Shown: positions 3,816-22,624 of the stretch, one piece after another
How positions within the stretch are numbered: the first letter of the stretch is position 1
Layout of the letters: the number at the start of each line of letters is the position of its first letter
DNA from: a virus
Taxonomy: Duplodnaviria; Caudoviricetes
DNA length: 64,000 bases
Virus record (IMG/VR): IMGVR_UViG_3300002895_000002
Coordinates: 128,001 to 192,000 of that record
Strand: one strand, 5' to 3'
Position numbers and translations under genes: made by a program
Notes under the pieces: model-generated
Seen by the model: only the letters and a program-made list of their open reading frames with translations
What the model was told of the DNA's origin: nothing
Database searches by the model: none

Positions 3816-4256
3816 ATGGAAAATAAAGACGAAACTACCTTGCTCGAAAAGGTCTATGCGAAGTTGAACGAGCTCCGGAAGGAAGCTGCGGAAGACATCA
3901 AAATAGACAAGGGGTCAATTGAAACCCAGTTCAACAGCCAGCAGAAGGTTGTGAAGTGGTTGAACAAGCGGATCGACTGGTATCGGTCTTATACGTCAAT
4001 CGAAGCCAAGCGAAAGGAAGCTTGGAAGAAGGCGTATGAATATTACCGGACTGATTACCCCATGAAGCTCAACAACGCTGAGGAATACCGGATGATGATC
4101 GAGTCAGATCCGACATATTCGGTGATTATGAACGAGGCGATTGCTATACAGGAAACCCTCTCATATATCGATTCGGTGATTGATGCTTTGAAAGGGCGAG
4201 CATTTGATGTATCCAATCTTTCAAAGTGGCTCATGTGGACCAATGGTAACAGGTAA
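3816..4256 (+). CDS. uvsY: Recombination mediator protein UvsY
   Basis: 146-aa helical protein (EDIKID..., YIESDP..., IDALKGRAFDVSN) next to uvsW as in T4-like phages. Confidence 0.75.
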   Translation: MENKDETTLLEKVYAKLNELRKEAAEDIKIDKGSIETQFNSQQKVVKWLNKRIDWYRSYTSIEAKRKEAWKKAYEYYRTDYPMKLNNAEEYRMMIESDPTYSVIMNEAIAIQETLSYIDSVIDALKGRAFDVSNLSKWLMWTNGNR

Positions 4257-4266
4257 GGAGAAACAA

Positions 4267-4737
4267 ATGAAGCTTGATTCGAGATTTGAAGCTCATTCAT
4301 TAACAAAAGCAATTCTGCCCTCAGTACTCAAAGGTCTTGGATATCTTTCCAGCGATGATTCAGAAAATGCCCGTCAGATGTACGGACCTCAGCAATTCAT
4401 CAGGGAAAGAGGAATAATTGGTTTGGTCCTTCCAAGACAAACCGGAAAGACCACTGCTCTCATTGATCTTTATGCTTTAATAAAGACTGCTGGGATGAAT
4501 GTTATCATTACCAGTAAATTCATAAGAATGAATGATAACATTCGGGCCAGAGTAATTGAGCGTTACGGTGTTGACCCAAGGGAGGATATGATTGAATACA
4601 CGAGACTCCCTGCTATCCTCATGGACGACAGAAAGGTGATTGACGTTGTTCTATGTGATGAGCACGACCCAGGGTCCCAGATCAATAATTTTCCTTCCCG
4701 AGCAACCAATACTCTCTTTGTGTTTTTCAAGACTTAG
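4267..4737 (+). CDS. Small hypothetical P-loop protein
   Basis: AAGGAG RBS before ATG 4267; LVLPRQTGKTT Walker-A-like motif and VVLCDE Walker-B-like motif. Confidence 0.55.
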   Translation: MKLDSRFEAHSLTKAILPSVLKGLGYLSSDDSENARQMYGPQQFIRERGIIGLVLPRQTGKTTALIDLYALIKTAGMNVIITSKFIRMNDNIRARVIERYGVDPREDMIEYTRLPAILMDDRKVIDVVLCDEHDPGSQINNFPSRATNTLFVFFKT

Positions 4738-4764
4738 CCAGCATTAAATAAAAATAATGATGAT

Positions 4765-4796
4765 ATGGGCGTAGAGAAATCTACGCCCATTCTTTT
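4765..4796 (+). terminator. Intrinsic terminator
   Basis: ATGGGCGTAGA-GAAA-TCTACGCCCAT then TCTTTT. Confidence 0.85.
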
Positions 4797-4857
4797 GACT
4801 GATACAAAATTCCCTTTATTTGCTTGGAAAAATCTTGATAAATATAAGTTTTAGCCA

Positions 4858-4923
4858 AATTTGACAGGTCCCGGATTTTCGTGTTATCCTTAAACCGTAG
4901 GTTGGGGCGGGGGTTCAATAGTC
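4858..4923 (+). repeat. G-rich promoter-containing repeat, copy 1 (inverted copy at 59044-59109)
   Basis: AATTTGACAGGTC (13 bp) and TGTTATCCTTAAACCGTAGGTTGGGGCGGGGGTTCAATAGTC (42 bp) are identical to the reverse complement of 59097-59109 and 59044-59085. Confidence 0.95.
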
Positions 4924-5010: not shown

Positions 5011-5018
5011 TATAAATA
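5011..5018 (+). promoter_or_regulatory. T4-type late promoter for uvsW
   Basis: TATAAATA; (T/G)ATAAATA also occurs before many structural genes, e.g. near 22295, 31914, 36697, 47265 and 49069. Confidence 0.8.
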
Positions 5019-5039: not shown

Positions 5040-6584
5040 ATGACAGACAGAAATCAAGTAACCATAACCAAGATAGATGAAGCAACGGTAGCTATTGACG
5101 CAAACCCCATCATCACTCAGGAGCTCATAAACTTCTTCTCGGTTTATGCTCCGAACTATCGTTGGGCCCCAGCATATAAGCAAGGTCACTGGGACGGAAA
5201 GATCCGGTTCTTCAACTACAGTAATCAGCTGCCCATTGGCCTTGTGAGTAAAGTAGCAGAATTCTGCCGCATGGGCCGGTATCCTCTCAAGATGGATTTC
5301 CAGACAGAGATCAAGCTGGACCAGACGGAGTTTACTCGGTTCGTTCATTCTCTTCATATCGTCGATGGAGATGGAAATCCGATGGAGCCGAGGGACTACC
5401 AGTTTATGTCTGCATTCGAGGCATGTTTCCGCCGACACATCTGCATGGAAGTTCCTACTGCTGGTGGTAAGACTCTGATCGCCTATATCATCGCTCGTTT
5501 CTTTGAGAAGATCGGGAAGAAGTTGCTTATCTGTGTCCCGAACGTATCTCTGGTCGAGCAGACCTACTCGGATTTCTTCTCGTATGGATGGGAAGACCTG
5601 TCTCAGTTTGTTCACATGATTTATTCTGGGAAAAAGAAAGATAGCTACTGCCCTGTGATTATCTCAACTTGGCAATCACTGCAACCAAAGCTGAAGGAGA
5701 ATCCTGAATATTTTGAACAATTTGATGGTTTGCTCATCGACGAAGCTCACGGAGCAAAAGCTACTGTCTTGAAAGACCTGACTGCTAAGTGTGTCAACGC
5801 TCAATGGCGTATGGGACTTTCCGGAACCTATCCAGACAGTAAATCTGCGGACTGGTACACAATCGTTGGTGGTCTCGGTCCGATCAAGAAATTCACTACC
5901 TACAAGGAACTCCAAGACAAGGGTCATATTGCAGGTCTGAAGATCTTTACTATCATTCTCAAGTATCCACTCTCAGTAAAAAGAGATTGCTACGAAAAAT
6001 GTGGGGATGATTATCACGTTCAGAACGATTATATCTACGGTCTTGAGTCAAGGAATGACTTCATAAAGAAGATGGTTTCTCAGCTCGACAAGAACGCTCT
6101 TGTTTTGTTCACAAAGATAGAAAAACATGGTGAGCCACTCAAGAAAATCTTGTCAACAATTCCCAAGAAGAGACTCATCTATATCGTAGGTGGAACTGAG
6201 GTCTCAGAACGGGAAATGAGTCGAGCTGTTGCTGAAAAAAGGGACGATGTAATTATTCTGGCCAGCTATGGCGTATTCTCTACCGGAGTGAACGTGAAAA
6301 ACATTCACTTCATTCTCTTTGCTTCTGGGTACAAGTCTCGGATCAAGGTACTCCAGTCTATTGGTCGGGGTCTCAGAAAGCACAAGGATAAGGTTGACCT
6401 TGTTCTCTACGATATTGTTGATGACATGAGCTTTACCAGCAAGAAGGACGAAATCCGGTTCATCAACCATTCCGTAAAGCATTTCAAGGAGCGGACGAAG
6501 ATCTATGATGAGCAGGGATTTACTCACAAGTATATCACCTACGAGATCAAAGACGAGAGCAAAACCGACCTAACAACTCTCTGA
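5040..6584 (+). CDS. uvsW: UvsW SF2 DNA helicase
   Basis: WDGKIRFF, PRDYQ, PTAGGKT, IDEAH, GLSGT, LQSIGRGLR motifs. Confidence 0.95.
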   Translation: MTDRNQVTITKIDEATVAIDANPIITQELINFFSVYAPNYRWAPAYKQGHWDGKIRFFNYSNQLPIGLVSKVAEFCRMGRYPLKMDFQTEIKLDQTEFTRFVHSLHIVDGDGNPMEPRDYQFMSAFEACFRRHICMEVPTAGGKTLIAYIIARFFEKIGKKLLICVPNVSLVEQTYSDFFSYGWEDLSQFVHMIYSGKKKDSYCPVIISTWQSLQPKLKENPEYFEQFDGLLIDEAHGAKATVLKDLTAKCVNAQWRMGLSGTYPDSKSADWYTIVGGLGPIKKFTTYKELQDKGHIAGLKIFTIILKYPLSVKRDCYEKCGDDYHVQNDYIYGLESRNDFIKKMVSQLDKNALVLFTKIEKHGEPLKKILSTIPKKRLIYIVGGTEVSEREMSRAVAEKRDDVIILASYGVFSTGVNVKNIHFILFASGYKSRIKVLQSIGRGLRKHKDKVDLVLYDIVDDMSFTSKKDEIRFINHSVKHFKERTKIYDEQGFTHKYITYEIKDESKTDLTTL

Positions 6585-16998: not shown

Positions 16999-17862
16999 AT
17001 GTCTCAATTTTCCACCACTGATTTCTTTCTAACAGATTTTCAACGGCTCATTTGGGCCGATAACTATCGGGATCCCCAACATGATCCGACGGTGGAAGCA
17101 ACATTTCGACGAATGGCTGCAACAATCTTCGCCAATGAATCTGAGGAGCTCCAGCAGGAACTCTTTGATCAACAACTCATGGCCAAGATCTTCTTCGGTG
17201 GTCGCGTGTATAACCTCGGTCGTGGCCTGAAGAACGTCAATGCTTTCAACTGCTATGCGGCTCAGCGGTCCACCATGCCAGTTGACTCCATCTCCAACAT
17301 CTTCGCTGATATCACCAATGCAGCGGAGATCCTGAAGACCGAGGGCGGCATTGGGTTCAACTTTAACCACATCAGACCGAAGGGTACTCTCATCAAGGGC
17401 GTCGGTGTTGGTACTCCGGGTGTCCTGGCTTTCATGGAGATTCAGGACAAGACCGCCGATGTCATCACCCGTGGTTCTACCGGTGACATTATCCAGGCCG
17501 ACGAGAATACTCCGACCAAGAAGAAGATCCGCAAGGGCGCTCAGATATCCCTGTTGGACTGCCGCCATCCGGAAATCTTCGCCTACATCGATGCCAAGAA
17601 GATCCCCAACCGGTTTGTTTGGTTCAACATGTCGGTAATTATTACGGACCGGTTTATGGAAAGATGTTTAGAAAATATAAATAAAATAGTTATTGAACTA
17701 AATGATGGAACAAAACATGAACTAGACCCCAATGAAGAAATAGAAATAGATGGGGTTATAATGACAGCGAAGGAATATAAAGATGGGTGTGAAAATAATG
17801 CCACCAAAAGACGAATTTATCAAGATGATAAAACAATCAGTTCTTCTGAAAGATGTAGCTGA
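16999..17862 (+). CDS. nrdJ: Class II ribonucleotide reductase, fragment a, with a 65-aa foreign C-terminal extension from 17665
   Basis: FFGGR, AFNCY, GGIGFNF..IRPKG, RKGAQ, HPEI, FNMSV; the RNR sequence stops at TDRFMER (17664). Confidence 0.88.
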   Translation: MSQFSTTDFFLTDFQRLIWADNYRDPQHDPTVEATFRRMAATIFANESEELQQELFDQQLMAKIFFGGRVYNLGRGLKNVNAFNCYAAQRSTMPVDSISNIFADITNAAEILKTEGGIGFNFNHIRPKGTLIKGVGVGTPGVLAFMEIQDKTADVITRGSTGDIIQADENTPTKKKIRKGAQISLLDCRHPEIFAYIDAKKIPNRFVWFNMSVIITDRFMERCLENINKIVIELNDGTKHELDPNEEIEIDGVIMTAKEYKDGCENNATKRRIYQDDKTISSSERCS

Positions 17863-18695
17863 ATATTATAAAGTAAGCCAACAATCAATAATTAAATGGA
17901 TGAAAAAATATAACATCTATGATGAATTTAATTTTAAGCGTAATGTTGGTAAAGGAAATCTTGGAAAAACAATAATTTGTTCCGAAGAACTAATAATTCG
18001 ATTAAGAAAAATGGCAGATAATCGGAAAGGACAACCCGGCCATAAAAGAATACAAAGAATAAAGGAAAGGTGTTATATATGTGAACACGAATTTATAAAA
18101 AAAGAATCTGACGAAAAAAAAGTATGTTCTAAAAAATGTGCAATAGTTCTTCGAAGTATTGAAAATATAAAATCTATAAATGTGGTGTGCACATATTGCG
18201 GTACATTTATTGAAAAACCACTGTCTCTCATCAAAGAACATAATTTTTGTGATTATAATTGTTGTAATGCATGGCGAAAAGGAAAAACATATGAAGAACT
18301 ATATGGTGAAGATAAAGCAAATATTATTAAACAAAAAATAATGGCAAATAGATCAGAAAATACTATTATGGTTCTTACTCGTCCACATATCAAACTCAAA
18401 AAATGAAATGATTTCTAATGGGTTATATGATGGATTCCAAACTTCAAAGAAAATGTATCAATTTGAAATAGATGAATATAATCATGATTTACAATTATGT
18501 TTAGAAATTGACGGCGATTATTGGCATAATTATCCTTATGGAACACAACAAGATAAAAGGAAAAATACATTTCTTGCTAATAAGGGATTTACTGTATTAA
18601 GAATATGGGAACATGATATAAACACTAATTTGGGTGGTTGTATTGAAAAAATTAAGGAGACTATTGAATGCTTAAGCTCTCAAGCAAAGAAATAA
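17783..18695 (+). mobile_element. Vsr/DUF559-like homing endonuclease between nrdJ a and b (one +1 frameshift at the A6 run 18398-18403)
   Basis: AT-rich; HTH-like start, Cys fingers, GKTYEELYGE repeat, LEIDGDYWH...VLRIWEHD; AAGGA RBS. Confidence 0.8.
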
Positions 18696-20209
18696 AGAAC
18701 GTAAGAAATGGTGGTGACTGGGACCTGTGGTTCCCTGACATCAAGCATCCCGAGTACGACAAGCTCTGGAAGGGTGACTTCGATGCATGGGAAGCTGCCG
18801 GTCTTCCCAAGGTCATCTATCAGACCATCAAGGCACGGGAGCTCTGGGATAAGCTCATCCAAAACACCTACACCAGGAACGAGCCAGGCATTCTCTTCAT
18901 CGACAATGCCGAGAAGAATAACAACCTCACCAGGTACATGAAAGTGACGGGTGTGAACCCCTGCGGCGAGATCCTGATGTGTGCTGATCCTGGCATCGTG
19001 GAGATCGACGGTGTTATCTATGAGTACCTCGGTGACATCTGTAACCTCGGTGCTATCAACCTCACCCAGTTCTTCACCATCGAGAACGGCTTTGCCTGGG
19101 ATGCTTTCAAAGAGTCCGTAGCAGTGCTCGTCCGTGCTCTGGATAACGTCATCGACATCTCTGGGTATCCGCTGGAGAAGATCAAGAACGCCGCCATGCT
19201 TCGCCGTAAAATCGGCTGTGGTGTCATGGGATACGGCTCGTTGCTCTTCATGATGGGCTTCAAGTACGGCTCCCAGAAGGCCAACGAGTTCACCGAAGTG
19301 CTAATGAAAGAGTACGCCAATGCTGCATATCAGGCATCGGCCATGCTCGCCAAGGAGAAGGGTGCATTCCCGCTCTGGAAACCCGAGATGATCAACGATG
19401 GGTACATCGGCAACTCCGGGATGCTCACCGATGAAACACTGGACCTCATAGCAGCACACGGTCTCCGTAATGCTCAGCTGATGACCATCGCCCCGACAGG
19501 CACCACATCCATCTTTGCCGGTCTCGTCAGCGGCGGTGTTGAGCCGGTCTTCGAGAAGGAGTACACCCGGTGGGTCATCTCCAACCACAGAGCAGAGGAG
19601 CTTCTGGAAGGGCTCGATGCTCCTGACTACCGCAACGGTCAGTTCGTTGAGACGAAGGACTTCAAGTTCTCTATGGCTGGGGATGAGAAGGTCCTAGTGT
19701 CTCTGGATGGCACCCTGATGATCGACCAGAATCATGGCCTTCGCAAGAAAGAGATCTGCGAGGATTACGGTTGGTACTGGGCGAAGAAGCACCGCGATCC
19801 GGATGCCGTGACCTTTGCCAAACGCCTCGGCATCTACAAGACTGCCATGGAGTTGTCAGTCAAGGAGCACATGGATGCATTTAAAGTTATGTCTAAAGCA
19901 GTTGATATGTCAATTAGTAAATGTGTTGATGTTGAAACCACTATGGTCGAAATAGATGGGAAGATTGTTTATCTTGATGAACTGGAATATGGGGAGGAAG
20001 ATTCCTTTGTCCAAATGTCCGGCATGATAAAAAATCATAATCACATTGATGTTCCGATTAAAGCAACATATAATAATGGAATCACCGATGTGGTAGAAAT
20101 AACTTTTTCTGATCGGTCCTCAATCATATGTACACCCAACCACCGGTTATATACCGAAAATGGGTTTGAGCCGGCTATTGAAATTTTGGTAGGAACAAAA
20201 ATTGTGTAA
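18668..20209 (+). CDS. nrdJ: Class II ribonucleotide reductase, fragment b (catalytic NPCGE) ending in an N-intein
   Basis: AAGGAG RBS; EPGILFID, GVNPCGEI, ICNLGAINL, RRKIGCGVMG, TIAPTGT, DMSISK. Confidence 0.92.
   Translation: MLKLSSKEIKNVRNGGDWDLWFPDIKHPEYDKLWKGDFDAWEAAGLPKVIYQTIKARELWDKLIQNTYTRNEPGILFIDNAEKNNNLTRYMKVTGVNPCGEILMCADPGIVEIDGVIYEYLGDICNLGAINLTQFFTIENGFAWDAFKESVAVLVRALDNVIDISGYPLEKIKNAAMLRRKIGCGVMGYGSLLFMMGFKYGSQKANEFTEVLMKEYANAAYQASAMLAKEKGAFPLWKPEMINDGYIGNSGMLTDETLDLIAAHGLRNAQLMTIAPTGTTSIFAGLVSGGVEPVFEKEYTRWVISNHRAEELLEGLDAPDYRNGQFVETKDFKFSMAGDEKVLVSLDGTLMIDQNHGLRKKEICEDYGWYWAKKHRDPDAVTFAKRLGIYKTAMELSVKEHMDAFKVMSKAVDMSISKCVDVETTMVEIDGKIVYLDELEYGEEDSFVQMSGMIKNHNHIDVPIKATYNNGITDVVEITFSDRSSIICTPNHRLYTENGFEPAIEILVGTKIV
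19922..20209 (+). mobile_element. Split intein, N-terminal half (95 aa)
   Basis: Begins with Cys (CVDVETT) after SISK; block B CTPNH; ends AIEILVGTKIV-stop; AT-rich. Confidence 0.9.
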
Positions 20210-20223
20210 ACATAACCATCTTA

Positions 20224-20265
20224 TATAAATAGATATACTCATATTGACAAAGAGGATCTATTTAT
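20224..20265 (+). promoter_or_regulatory. Late promoter within a hairpin covering the HEG start codon
   Basis: TATAAATA at 20224; perfect 10-bp IR ATAAATAGAT (20225)/ATCTATTTAT (20256) overlapping ATG 20264; AGAGGA RBS inside. Confidence 0.7.
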
Positions 20266-21346
20266 GCGAAATGTTGTTAAAAACACAATTCATCGATGGA
20301 ATAAGACGATGGATTTATCGCAGTATTCCATCGATGAATTGGAGGAATTCTTACAAAAAAAATTATATTGACTTTCCGAGAAATGTTAGGTATAATATAG
20401 GAAAGTGGATTGGTTCAGGGAAACCATTATCTGATTATTCTATTGCCGCAGCAGCACAACATCGGTCTGTCTTTTCTACTACCTATATTGCAGAGAAAAA
20501 TAAAAGGTATATAGAAAGTCTTCCGGAAAATGAAAAAAAGATACGGTATAAAAAATCATGTGAGAAGGGGCAAATAACACGAAAAGAGAGACACGGTTCT
20601 ATTTCCGAATCTTATCGTAAAGGGTTAATCCTAAAGGGCCAACGAACCGCATTACTATTAGGAATAACCGACACATTGTCTGATACTGAATTATTGTCTT
20701 TATCCGGTTACCAAAAGAAAAATAATTACCAGTTATTAACGGAAAGTGAAAAAGAGAAAAAAAGAATAGCCTGGAAAAAACAAATCTTAAAAATACCAAT
20801 GTGTTTGAAATCATCATTTCAGAATATCCCATTTTTTCAACCGTCGATGTGAACCAGTTGTCGGATGAAGAAATAGAAACCTGGTATAGATGTTACCGAT
20901 CAATAATGTCTATTAGAAGAATGAACAATAAACATCATTCTTATGGGAGATCAGGTCATTATTATTCTAGTAAAACACGAAAGAAACATTATTACAGATC
21001 ATCATATGAATTGAAGTTACTACAAATTCTAGATGAATTTGAATTTGTGATCGATTATATGACAGAACCGTACCACATTACATTAGACATAGGAAAAAGA
21101 TATGTTCCCGATTTTGTGATTGAAACTAAAAATGGTCGAATAGTAGTTGAAGTAAAACCAACGTTTAAACTAAAAGAATTTCTCGAATCTAAAGGTTATC
21201 AATTATTTTCTCAGCTATCCAATTTCGTTATTATGACCACCGAAGAAATAGACCAAGGAGAAGAAAATGTCAGATCCCAGATTGTTGAATATACAAAAAA
21301 CGTCAGATCGCATACCAGCGAGCTACAGATCAGAAAAAACGATTGA
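20264..21346 (+). mobile_element. TnsA-like PD-(D/E)XK homing endonuclease between the intein halves (two frameshifts at A runs)
   Basis: YRSSYE...YVPDF...VVEVKP; frames switch at A8 (20355-20362) and A7 (20757-20763). Confidence 0.72.
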
Positions 21347-22268
21347 AGATATAAAAAATGACCTTAATTCACTAAATTGGGATGATGTAACCAACCAACA
21401 TTTATTTAACCTGCGGGCTGTTATTTTTCCTCAACCGAAAACTGTAACTGGAATTCGTATGGTTGGAAAAAAACAAACCGGGGACCTAGAAATAGATCAT
21501 CCATCACATTCTTATTATGCAAATGGTGTACCTACTCATAATACAGTGAACCTCCCAGCTGATTATCCATATGACGATTTTGACAAACTCTTCAGGGATG
21601 CATGGAAGAGCGGTGTACGGGGTATCACTACCTACCGTGAAGGCACCATGACAGCGGTCCTCGAGACCAACAAGAAGAAGGACAAAGAGACCAAGAAGGC
21701 CAAGGAAGAGCTGAAGGACTTCTACGAGGAATGGGAAGGGCATGAGGACGGCCGTGTTCGCATAGACGATGTCCAACTTCCGTCCGAGTACCCCATGACC
21801 GGTTTCAAGATCGTCTCTGAAGGCCGCAAGTGGTACATCTCCGTTGCGTTCAAAGACAAAAAGATGACCAAGCCGTTTGGCATCTTCGTCACGACGAATC
21901 ACCGTGAAAATGACGTGAAAACGTACTCTGCTCTTTCGGCCATGGAGCAGTTGGCTACTGAAGCAGGCATCCTTGAGCGGATTATCGAGGACAATCGTAA
22001 GAAGTATGCTGGCCAGACCAATATCAATAAGCTGGCTCGGACTATCAGCCTTCTGTTGCGACACAACGTGGACATCGCTCTCATCGTAAAGACCCTCGAT
22101 GCTCTCGATGACATCCCGGTGTTCTCATTCATCTACCGCATCAAGAAGTTCCTCACCAAGTACATCACCGAGATGGAGAACGGAATGAGTTGTCCTGAGT
22201 GTGGTGAAACGTTGATCTACACCGAGGGATGCATCAAATGCTCTCAGTGTGCATACAGTAAATGCTAA
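21267..22268 (+). CDS. nrdJ: C-intein (ends at 21542) plus class II RNR fragment c (TSCPD-like domain and Zn ribbon)
   Basis: AAGGAG RBS; DLEIDHPSHSYYANGVPTHN then TVNLP; GVRGITTYREG; C-terminal CPECG..EGCIKCSQCAYSKC. Confidence 0.9.
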   Translation: MSDPRLLNIQKTSDRIPASYRSEKTIEDIKNDLNSLNWDDVTNQHLFNLRAVIFPQPKTVTGIRMVGKKQTGDLEIDHPSHSYYANGVPTHNTVNLPADYPYDDFDKLFRDAWKSGVRGITTYREGTMTAVLETNKKKDKETKKAKEELKDFYEEWEGHEDGRVRIDDVQLPSEYPMTGFKIVSEGRKWYISVAFKDKKMTKPFGIFVTTNHRENDVKTYSALSAMEQLATEAGILERIIEDNRKKYAGQTNINKLARTISLLLRHNVDIALIVKTLDALDDIPVFSFIYRIKKFLTKYITEMENGMSCPECGETLIYTEGCIKCSQCAYSKC

Positions 22269-22278
22269 GACGAAAAAG

Positions 22279-22322
22279 AGAAAATGGCGGGTTCTATAAA
22301 TAAGTAGAATCCGCCATTTTCT
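22279..22322 (+). terminator. Terminator hairpin with a late promoter across its loop
   Basis: 18-bp stem AGAAAATGGCGGGTTCTA/TAGAATCCGCCATTTTCT; TATAAATA at 22295-22302. Confidence 0.75.
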
Positions 22323-22339
22323 ATTTTTTGGAGAATATA

Positions 22340-22624
22340 ATGAGCAAGTTTGTCGTACTGTTGGAGCAGGTTCTCAATGAATCCCCAACCACCTATGAGC
22401 GACTGGTATCAAATGCCATCGAGAGCAAGAAGAGTAATCCTTCTGCTCCTGACTCTGAGCATATGAAGCATGTTGCTGGTGCAGACAAGGATCACAAAGA
22501 TCTTGTTGCTGCCCATCTCAAAGGTGATAAGGCCGTTGTGAAGGGTAAGATCAACATGATTTCAGGCAAAGGCCGAGTATGGAGCGACCACGCAGAAAAG
22601 CTCCGTGGAATTCTGGGGGTGTAA
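22340..22624 (+). CDS. Small late protein, candidate internal head protein
   Basis: Late promoter upstream; N-terminus MSKFVVLLEQVLNES. Confidence 0.6.
   Translation: MSKFVVLLEQVLNESPTTYERLVSNAIESKKSNPSAPDSEHMKHVAGADKDHKDLVAAHLKGDKAVVKGKINMISGKGRVWSDHAEKLRGILGV

Follow-up and report, generated by a model that had tools for sequence, protein, structure and literature searches.

A homing endonuclease insertion in a phage class II ribonucleotide reductase gene is flanked by a conserved tail and head that probably clasp the separately made halves

The gene for class II ribonucleotide reductase (RNR), nrdJ, is broken twice in a 64,000-nucleotide (nt) stretch of tailed phage DNA (Caudoviricetes; positions 128,001 to 192,000 of IMG/VR virus record IMGVR_UViG_3300002895_000002, which is 213,116 bp long and rated complete), referred to here as the window. 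The list of open reading frames (ORFs) places nrdJ in three pieces, nrdJ-a, nrdJ-b and nrdJ-c. At the first break, an insertion encoding an endonuclease of the EDxHD family separates nrdJ-a from nrdJ-b, and the two halves of NrdJ are probably made separately and held together, without splicing, by a clasp between a C-terminal tail on NrdJ-a and an N-terminal head on NrdJ-b. This interpretation is well supported, albeit by computation only, and was assigned a probability of about 0.7. An earlier reading made from the sequence alone had also proposed a non-covalent clasp that works without splicing, and had derived it from a degenerate split intein. The clasp itself is supported by the conservation of the pair in seven lineages, its retention after loss of the endonuclease, purifying selection and a predicted intermolecular sheet; the proposed descent from an intein fared less well.

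The nrdJ-a gene begins at ATG 16999, or alternatively at GTG 16948, and ends at 17862 with a stop codon at 17860; its product is 95% identical to protein P0001. It matches the RNR barrel as far as ...TDRFMER and then continues for 65 extra codons, the first of which encodes Cys at 17665. The nrdJ-b gene begins at ATG 18668 with MLKLSSKEIKN, the Asn codon of which ends at 18700, and reads on from Val at 18701 as VRNGGDWDLW. The sequence-only reading had both the coordinates and the sequences of these extensions right. Deletion of 17665-18700 gives FMER-VRNGGDWDLW, as it had claimed, with the length found in unsplit homologues (FMEA[VL]ENGGD...), and comparison with those homologues identifies the Val at +1 as a native residue. 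The features around the first break are as follows:

16999-17664, plus strand: RNR (extein) part of nrdJ-a (Pfam Ribonuc_red_lgC, 9e-23), with the first redox Cys (FNCY)
17665-17787, plus strand: conserved tail core of NrdJ-a, 41 amino acids (aa), net charge about -6, four predicted beta-strands in AlphaFold2 (AF2) models
17788-17862, plus strand: non-conserved tail extension and stop codon, overlapping the start of the endonuclease gene in another frame; conservation ends after A.EY(K)
18654-18659, plus strand: AAGGAG, Shine-Dalgarno sequence of nrdJ-b, within the endonuclease coding region and 8 nt before ATG 18668
18668-18700, plus strand: conserved head of NrdJ-b, 11 aa, MLKLSSKEIKN, net positive, with homologous heads elsewhere
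18701-18718, plus strand: VRNGGD, RNR residues co-converted with the cassette; the empty-site allele has VEADDT here
18719-19921, plus strand: native RNR part of nrdJ-b (Pfam Ribonuc_red_lgC, 1.3e-67), with NPCGE and the second redox Cys

The insert (17665-18700) is 1036 nt long, which is not a multiple of three, and nrdJ-a and nrdJ-b lie in different frames. Its guanine-plus-cytosine (GC) content is 25-33%, compared with approximately 53% in the flanks. By this layout, in which nrdJ-a has its own stop codon and nrdJ-b its own Shine-Dalgarno sequence and ATG, the fragments are translated separately. The 65-codon run that extends nrdJ-a into AT-rich DNA is free of stops beyond chance expectation (P of about 0.002); the other two frames contain 7-8 stops ahead of the endonuclease start. 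In most lineages the end of the tail core (TAKEYKD, 17767-17787) resembles the end of the head (SSKEIKN, 18680-18700), and MAFFT aligned the two on one occasion; this likeness may reflect a short duplication flanking the endonuclease, or chance.

The extent of the foreign DNA was established from alleles in which the site is empty. DNA homology between the window and an unsplit relative (contig L015) ends after 17658 and restarts at 18719. The same joint is seen in metagenomic DNA contigs from activated sludge and biofilm, where 17658 is followed by 23-24 different letters and then by 18718/18719. The foreign segment was therefore placed at 17659-18718. The cassette brought its own ER...VRNGGD; two unsplit close relatives with an 868-aa NrdJ (P0023 and P0024) read RFM[HK]AVEAD..WDLW. 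The features of the cassette are:

17659-18718, no strand assigned: foreign AT-rich cassette at the DNA level, replacing 24 nt of the empty-site allele (alignment to L015 and GC profile)
17676-17683, plus strand: TATAAATA, a box resembling T4-type late promoters, with the endonuclease ATG about 100 nt downstream
17783-18406, plus strand: N-terminal DNA-binding part of the homing endonuclease, 207 aa, cut off by a frameshift (ORF list)
18398-18403, plus strand: run of six A, one more than in the related contig L001, causing the frameshift (DNA alignment)
18408-18695, plus strand: Vsr-like/EDxHD nuclease domain of the endonuclease, 95 aa (Pfam DUF559, 4e-10)

A homologue of the endonuclease in another lineage (L002) matches the structure of I-Bth0305I (3R3P; E-value 1.7e-5). 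In L001 the endonuclease is a single 289-aa ORF. The cassette is 99.3% identical between the window and L001, whereas the nrdJ flanks are only about 93-95% identical, as would be expected if the cassette had spread recently by homing. The window copy of the endonuclease contains the extra A and retains DGDYWH (18523-18528), while the L001 copy (5130-5270) has an intact frame and reads DGDYWY; the His of this motif is presumably a catalytic residue. These two close copies thus appear to be damaged in different ways, which fits decay after fixation.

Several minor observations concern the cassette and its surroundings. The box TATAAATA occurs eight times in the window, always on the plus strand (at 5011, 10858, 15179, 17676, 20224, 22295, 23211 and 60193), against 1.5 copies expected. 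Several copies lie directly upstream of endonuclease genes, and that at 20224 precedes ORFs located between split-intein halves; the box may act as a promoter. At the end of the native-looking part of nrdJ-a (17634-17658), synonymous codons ending in A or T (GTA ATT ATT ACG) stand in place of GTC ATC ATC ACC in the empty-site relative, and this stretch looks like a co-conversion tract from an AT-rich donor. Cassette, endonuclease and tail had no match in GenBank phages by megablast or tblastn, and a scan of IMG/VR with the endonuclease yielded no near relative of the cassette. Relatives of this phage come from wastewater, activated-sludge and biofilm metagenomes. Two outgroup endonucleases (P0013 and P0014) lie between unrelated structural genes in which there are no inteins, and were set aside as uninformative about ancestry.

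The tail was sought elsewhere by an exhaustive phmmer search in which the 65-aa query was run over 1.84 billion protein representatives. Leaving aside P0001, which is nearly identical, and a repetitive false match, the search returned six proteins, five of them RNR N-fragments that end in a homologous tail and are all broken after the same F-x-[ED]-x position. The contigs of these matches were fetched, IMG/VR and JGI metagenomes were scanned, and IMG/VR supplied one more lineage, giving seven in all (the window and L001; L002; L003, L004 and L010; L005; L006, L007 and L008; L009 and L011; and L012). No unsplit protein among the 1.84 billion representatives contains the tail at the sensitivity of phmmer, and there is no second copy in this phage's own genome. 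Alone, the tail matched nothing in Pfam, PHROGs or, by phmmer, the PDB. A protein-language-model look-up was discarded: in whole-protein context the tail returned RNR matches and alone it returned none, the pattern of context bleed.

The tail consensus spans about 41 residues (x-x-E-x-x-x-K-I-x-[IV]-E-L-x-D-G-x-K-x-x-L-D-P-x-E-x-[IL]-E-[IL]-D-G-x-[IV]-x-x-A-x-[ED]-[YL]) and is variable beyond. The heads, which are known for six lineages, are all 11 residues long and read M[LI][KQ][LI]xS[KG]xIKx, followed by [VI]R; in every one of these lineages the head opens with a conserved Met behind a strong Shine-Dalgarno sequence. Tail and head carry opposite charges (-6 and +1.5, respectively), and the pair usually surrounds a Vsr-like (EDxHD) homing endonuclease. 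In pairwise comparisons, tail cores are on average 52% identical and heads 61%; the corresponding means are 44% for endonucleases and 38-41% over the 100 RNR residues next to them. In two lineages, L005 (84-nt gap) and L006/7/8 (22-nt gap), there is no endonuclease between the fragments, and the tail, stop, Shine-Dalgarno sequence, ATG and head are nevertheless retained. Between L003 and L010 the tail core differs by six synonymous and two non-synonymous changes, giving a ratio of non-synonymous to synonymous differences per site (pN/pS) of 0.08, compared with 0.20 for the extein. Taken together, these identities, the retention without the endonuclease, the pN/pS ratio and the stop-free run indicate selection on both peptides at the protein level that does not depend on the endonuclease.

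In the L006 lineage (L006 6001-6651, and likewise L007 and L008) fragments a and b share one frame, with a single TAA and seven codons, which include the Shine-Dalgarno sequence, in between. Several inteins interrupt the RNR of L006 as well, with a split intein upstream and one containing HNH downstream. The fusion of its two fragments was used as a natural single-chain version of the tail-head pair, the TAA being read as Gln for folding only. The first AF2 model of this fusion was too poor for use (predicted local distance difference test score, pLDDT, 45.6). The model retained is middling overall (pLDDT 66.6, with a partly misaligned multiple sequence alignment), and has a pLDDT of 80-89 over tail, head and native hairpin, in which the tail forms four strands and the head two. 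In structural searches, RNR structures covered approximately 84-105 of the 168 model residues, roughly the RNR part, and tail and head therefore appear to be an addition to the RNR. Only RNRs were returned by Foldseek against the PDB, by VIA run on Foldseek's list, and from the Atlas.

The sequence-only reading had named AlphaFold-multimer modelling of the tail with the 11-aa head as a check on the clasp. The last 45 extein residues of NrdJ-a plus the tail were modelled with residues 1-74 of NrdJ-b, using separate small alignments. The complex gave ipSAE values of 0.66, 0.66 and 0.64, whereas the best of three controls gave 0.00; the pLDDT of the partner was 84, and 90% of contacts agreed between runs. 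In calibration, 58 of 80 solved complexes attained this mark, as did 2 of 110 mismatched pairs, counts that are only rough with user alignments. The tightest contacts were those between tail and head: those of lowest error pair IVIELN of the tail (17686-17703) with residues 8-15 of NrdJ-b (EIKNVRNG), and IEID of the tail (17740-17751) with head residues 2-6 (LKLSS).

The proposed sequence of events is that a cassette with a free-standing Vsr-like (EDxHD) endonuclease homed into a fixed site of nrdJ, between the ...DxFMEx helix and the beta-hairpin that follows. The cassette would give the upstream half a 41-residue acidic tail and a stop codon, supply a late-promoter-like box and the endonuclease gene, and give the downstream half a Shine-Dalgarno sequence and ATG followed by an 11-residue basic head. 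The halves would be translated separately and remain unligated. The tail would fold as a small beta-meander, to which the head would add two short strands, LKLSS against IEID and EIKNV(RNG) against IVIELN, and the resulting intermolecular sheet would tether NrdJ-a to NrdJ-b such that the active site reassembles with its cysteines on different chains.

A precedent exists in Aeromonas phage Aeh1, the nrdA-a / mobE / nrdA-b genes of which encode tails derived from a mobile element (Friedrich 2007; Crona et al. 2010, PMC3045599). The AT-rich tails were brought into nrdA by mobE and are essential for activity, and Crona et al. suggested that such tails may be general and possibly split-intein remnants (PMC3045599). 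The assembly-tail principle is therefore already known, and the nrdJ pair is a recurring, portable version of it. In both systems the catalytic subunit of an RNR is split by a free-standing homing endonuclease that leaves active-site cysteines on different chains, the extensions at the C- and N-termini are AT-rich, oppositely charged and without counterpart in unsplit homologues, and the endonuclease gene runs into the start of fragment b. Neither RNA splicing nor protein splicing takes place in Aeh1, and the nrdJ sequence suggests the same here. The two differ in that Aeh1 has a class Ia NrdA split by an HNH endonuclease (MobE), whereas a class II NrdJ is split here, at a different break point, by a Vsr-like/EDxHD endonuclease; the polarity of charge is also reversed, with an acidic tail and a basic head in NrdJ. 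The Aeh1 tails have no database relatives, whereas those described here form a family in seven diverged RNR lineages, at one site, that outlasts the endonuclease. The function of the Aeh1 tails was assayed, and that of the NrdJ pair is only modelled.

A second precedent was reported by Dassa et al. (2009), who described an intein-less SbcD-like gene fractured by a Vsr-like endonuclease, with 25 extra C-terminal and 9 extra N-terminal residues (PMC2677866). With this locus (PMC2677866) and the Aeh1 tails (PMC3045599) already published, the description of the nrdJ junction as an undescribed system does not stand. The fractured genes of that study share with nrdJ the endonuclease family and the gene order (N-part, endonuclease, C-part); unlike them, the first nrdJ junction has no intein blocks and no nucleophiles. 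The SbcD extensions (25 and 9 aa) are close in size to the 41 and 11 aa found here, but were a single observation to which neither conservation nor a role was attached. Pseudomonas aeruginosa has a naturally split class II RNR, NrdJa/NrdJb. Another is nrdJ-a/b of Thermus phage phiYS40, with a 12-nt gap (cited in PMC3653736). Such naturally split enzymes, which involve no mobile element, are encoded by two consecutive ORFs, and this is how the L005 and L006/7/8 loci look after loss of the endonuclease. The EDxHD homing endonuclease I-Bth0305I (PDB 3R3P) is encoded in a group I intron (PMC3239194), unlike that of the window, which is free-standing and frameshifted.

Some observations weigh against the clasp. 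Binding between tail and head is suggested by a structure model built on shallow custom alignments (6-7 rows), and the modelled fragments include native RNR contacts that add to the complex score. The evidence that the pair is needed for assembly or activity is indirect, comprising its conservation, its retention after endonuclease loss, the pN/pS of 0.08 and the complex model. The estimate of selection on the tail rests on eight substitutions. The high identity of the tails may partly reflect younger common ancestry through homing, although the lower conservation of the co-travelling endonuclease weakens that explanation. Finally, the Aeh1 tails are needed for the dimerization of heterodimers and not for formation of the a/b heterodimer (PMC3045599), and so the role of the NrdJ tail may differ from that of a simple a-b clasp.

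One possible origin of the pair, which is compatible with the clasp, is a split intein of which a fossil is left, with the central zipper kept and both splice junctions lost. The zipper would correspond to the second half of the N-intein, including the block-B hairpin, together with the first strand of the C-intein. Intein ancestry of the pair is put at about one in three. In a VIA-align search of the fusion model against 48,161 PDB representatives, seven of the top 50 matches were inteins (Prp8, 4.6; PI-PfuI, 4.3; PolII mini-intein, 4.2; gp41-1, 3.9; MchDnaB-1, 3.8; Cat, 3.8; DnaX mini-intein, 3.6). These matches cover only model residues 49/51-109/125, i.e., tail, linker and head, with one row extending into the native hairpin; on the intein side they span residues from about 45 to 115, from the block-B hairpin through the usual split or endonuclease site into the first C-intein strand. 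The structural register agrees with that of the sequence-only alignment and with the one chosen by hhalign. Cyanobacterial DnaE C-inteins start with MIKI or MVKV, as the heads do. In fractured genes the same endonuclease family usually sits between an N-intein and a C-intein, and split-intein halves pair via long strands of opposite charge (PMC2677866), which may be compared with the acidic tail and basic head; the same origin was proposed by Crona et al. for the Aeh1 tails (PMC3045599).

Sequence comparison lends this origin little. The ungapped alignment of the tail with the N-intein of the window, offered earlier as evidence for a Hint domain, covers 32 residues and has a BLOSUM62 score of 15, no better than the best scores of shuffled tails (13.7 +/- 5.9). 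BLASTP misses it, returning an E-value of 0.9 on another register. Profile alignment of the tail with six N-inteins (hhalign) chose the same register with a probability of 0.7% and a P value of 0.08. The replacement of the catalytic TxxH by DxxE can be read in the window and in six of the seven lineages, but in a register that is not significant; at the block-B positions there, six lineages have DP[NDE]E, one has DFDE and none has TxxH. Pfam and searches of the PDB with phmmer and hmmsearch gave no Hint match for the tail, and the best matches of the tail profile to the PDB were insignificant, generic beta-hairpins with a DG turn (interleukin 8 and staphylococcal toxin-like proteins). The relationship to Hint domains that had been claimed thus retains a weak fold-level signal, with no significant sequence method behind it and only RNRs from Foldseek.

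The size and ends of the pair also count against an intein fossil. Tail and head together comprise about 52 aa, compared with at least 125 aa for a Hint domain. The terminal Cys and Asn of the window's insert, which had suggested an intein, are not kept among homologous tails and heads: by lineage, tails start with C, C, V, I, Y, T or V and have no block A, and heads end with N, D, E, E, S or T, always followed by V or I at +1. Going by these sequences, that the insert begins with Cys and ends with Asn is a coincidence specific to this lineage. No intermediate with blocks A, F or G was found, and the AF2 model used in the structural search is the middling one described above. A more specific and doubtful proposal is that a split intein stripped of its splice junctions, but with its capture zipper intact, became a portable non-covalent fastener travelling with a homing endonuclease. 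If this were true, the fastener would let the endonuclease colonize an essential gene even where a +1 nucleophile is missing, and would stay as a permanent subunit interface after the endonuclease had decayed.

A different and unlikely origin is duplication: the tail would be a diverged copy of the RNR segment that follows the break (the head-like strand and hairpin up to the A[KR]EL helix), produced by partial tandem duplication around the endonuclease and then carried by homing. MAFFT repeatedly pulled pieces of the tail onto the N-terminus of NrdJ-b, a global hhalign of the tail profile with the head-plus-b profile was collinear over 39 columns (equalled by 3% of column permutations), and appending the tail raised the Pfam RNR score by 1.8-5.7 bits in five lineages. 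However, local hhalign gave P values of 0.06-0.10, a hidden Markov model of the RNR segment scored the tails no better than shuffles in six of the seven lineages (hmmsearch), the Pfam increments are biased upward by local alignment, the registers differ between MAFFT runs in a manner typical of unrelated sequences, and RNR structures leave the tail of the model uncovered. The resemblance may be treated as a weak lead.

Tail and head could also be passengers, present only because the cassette must supply a stop, promoter, Shine-Dalgarno sequence and ATG, with the native RNR interface alone assembling the halves. The tail coding region does hold the late-promoter-like box and the Shine-Dalgarno sequence of the endonuclease, and the Aeh1 a/b heterodimer forms without tails (PMC3045599). 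Passengers would not be expected to persist in lineages that have no endonuclease, to be more conserved than both endonuclease and extein, or to have a pN/pS of 0.08. The promoter box is not conserved at the protein-equivalent positions of other lineages, and the stop-free run (P 0.002) and the confident tail-head contacts of the model also tell against this explanation, which is considered distinctly unlikely.

Removal of the interruption from RNA, by a group I or II intron (e.g., with a U/G junction giving FMERLRNGG) or by translational bypass, is very improbable. One possible intron is preceded by U and ends in G, group I introns are frequent in phage RNR genes, and those of recA are known to harbour Vsr-like endonucleases (PMC2677866). 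However, cmscan with all Rfam families (E <= 10, 17000-22500) found no intron model, the endonuclease ORFs leave only about 118 nt plus 8 nt of the insert uncovered, and the RNA folds before the endonuclease and nrdJ-b starts were not significant. The head Met is conserved behind a strong Shine-Dalgarno sequence wherever the head is known, the endonuclease-less loci keep stop, Shine-Dalgarno sequence and ATG with gaps of 22-84 nt, and joined forms were found only as DNA alleles, in which 24 different nucleotides occupy the site. An ultra-short split intein that still trans-splices is scarcely credible: Cys at position 1 and Asn at the end occur together in this window alone, the lineages between them having C, V, I, Y or T at position 1 and ending in N, D, E, S or T; Val or Ile is at +1 in all lineages, and the 52 aa lack blocks A, F and G.

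The clasp adds to what was known in several respects. The combination of a class II RNR with an EDxHD endonuclease is new, as is a family of conserved, portable tail-head pairs that occupies a single site in seven diverged RNR lineages and outlives its endonuclease. A structural model of the clasp and a first, weak piece of fold-level evidence on the intein question are also provided. Crona et al. expected assembly tails to be difficult to recognize, each being unique (PMC3045599); here, one tail-head pair recurs in at least seven diverged phage RNR genes and travels with a single endonuclease family. If binding is as the model predicts, it explains how an endonuclease that is free-standing can interrupt an essential enzyme within the active-site barrel without cost, a natural heterodimerizing tag of 41 plus 11 residues becomes available for testing on other split proteins, and the descent of such tails from split inteins can be put to a concrete test. 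For annotation, such fragments should not be labelled pseudogenes.

The second break of the same nrdJ gene (19922-21542) is of the other kind, a typical fractured gene of the type described by Dassa et al., with a real split intein:

19922-20209, plus strand: genuine split N-intein, starting CVDVETT and with a TPNH block B

A TnsA-like endonuclease (20801-21346) lies between the split-intein halves in the window's nrdJ, and in L015, the nrdJ of which is unsplit, a TnsA-like endonuclease gene (4173-4865) lies directly downstream of nrdJ. The C-intein on nrdJ-c (21267-21542) is 92 aa long, compared with the usual 35-50 aa, and near neutral in charge; its first 55 or so residues may be an extension or an overlap with the endonuclease.

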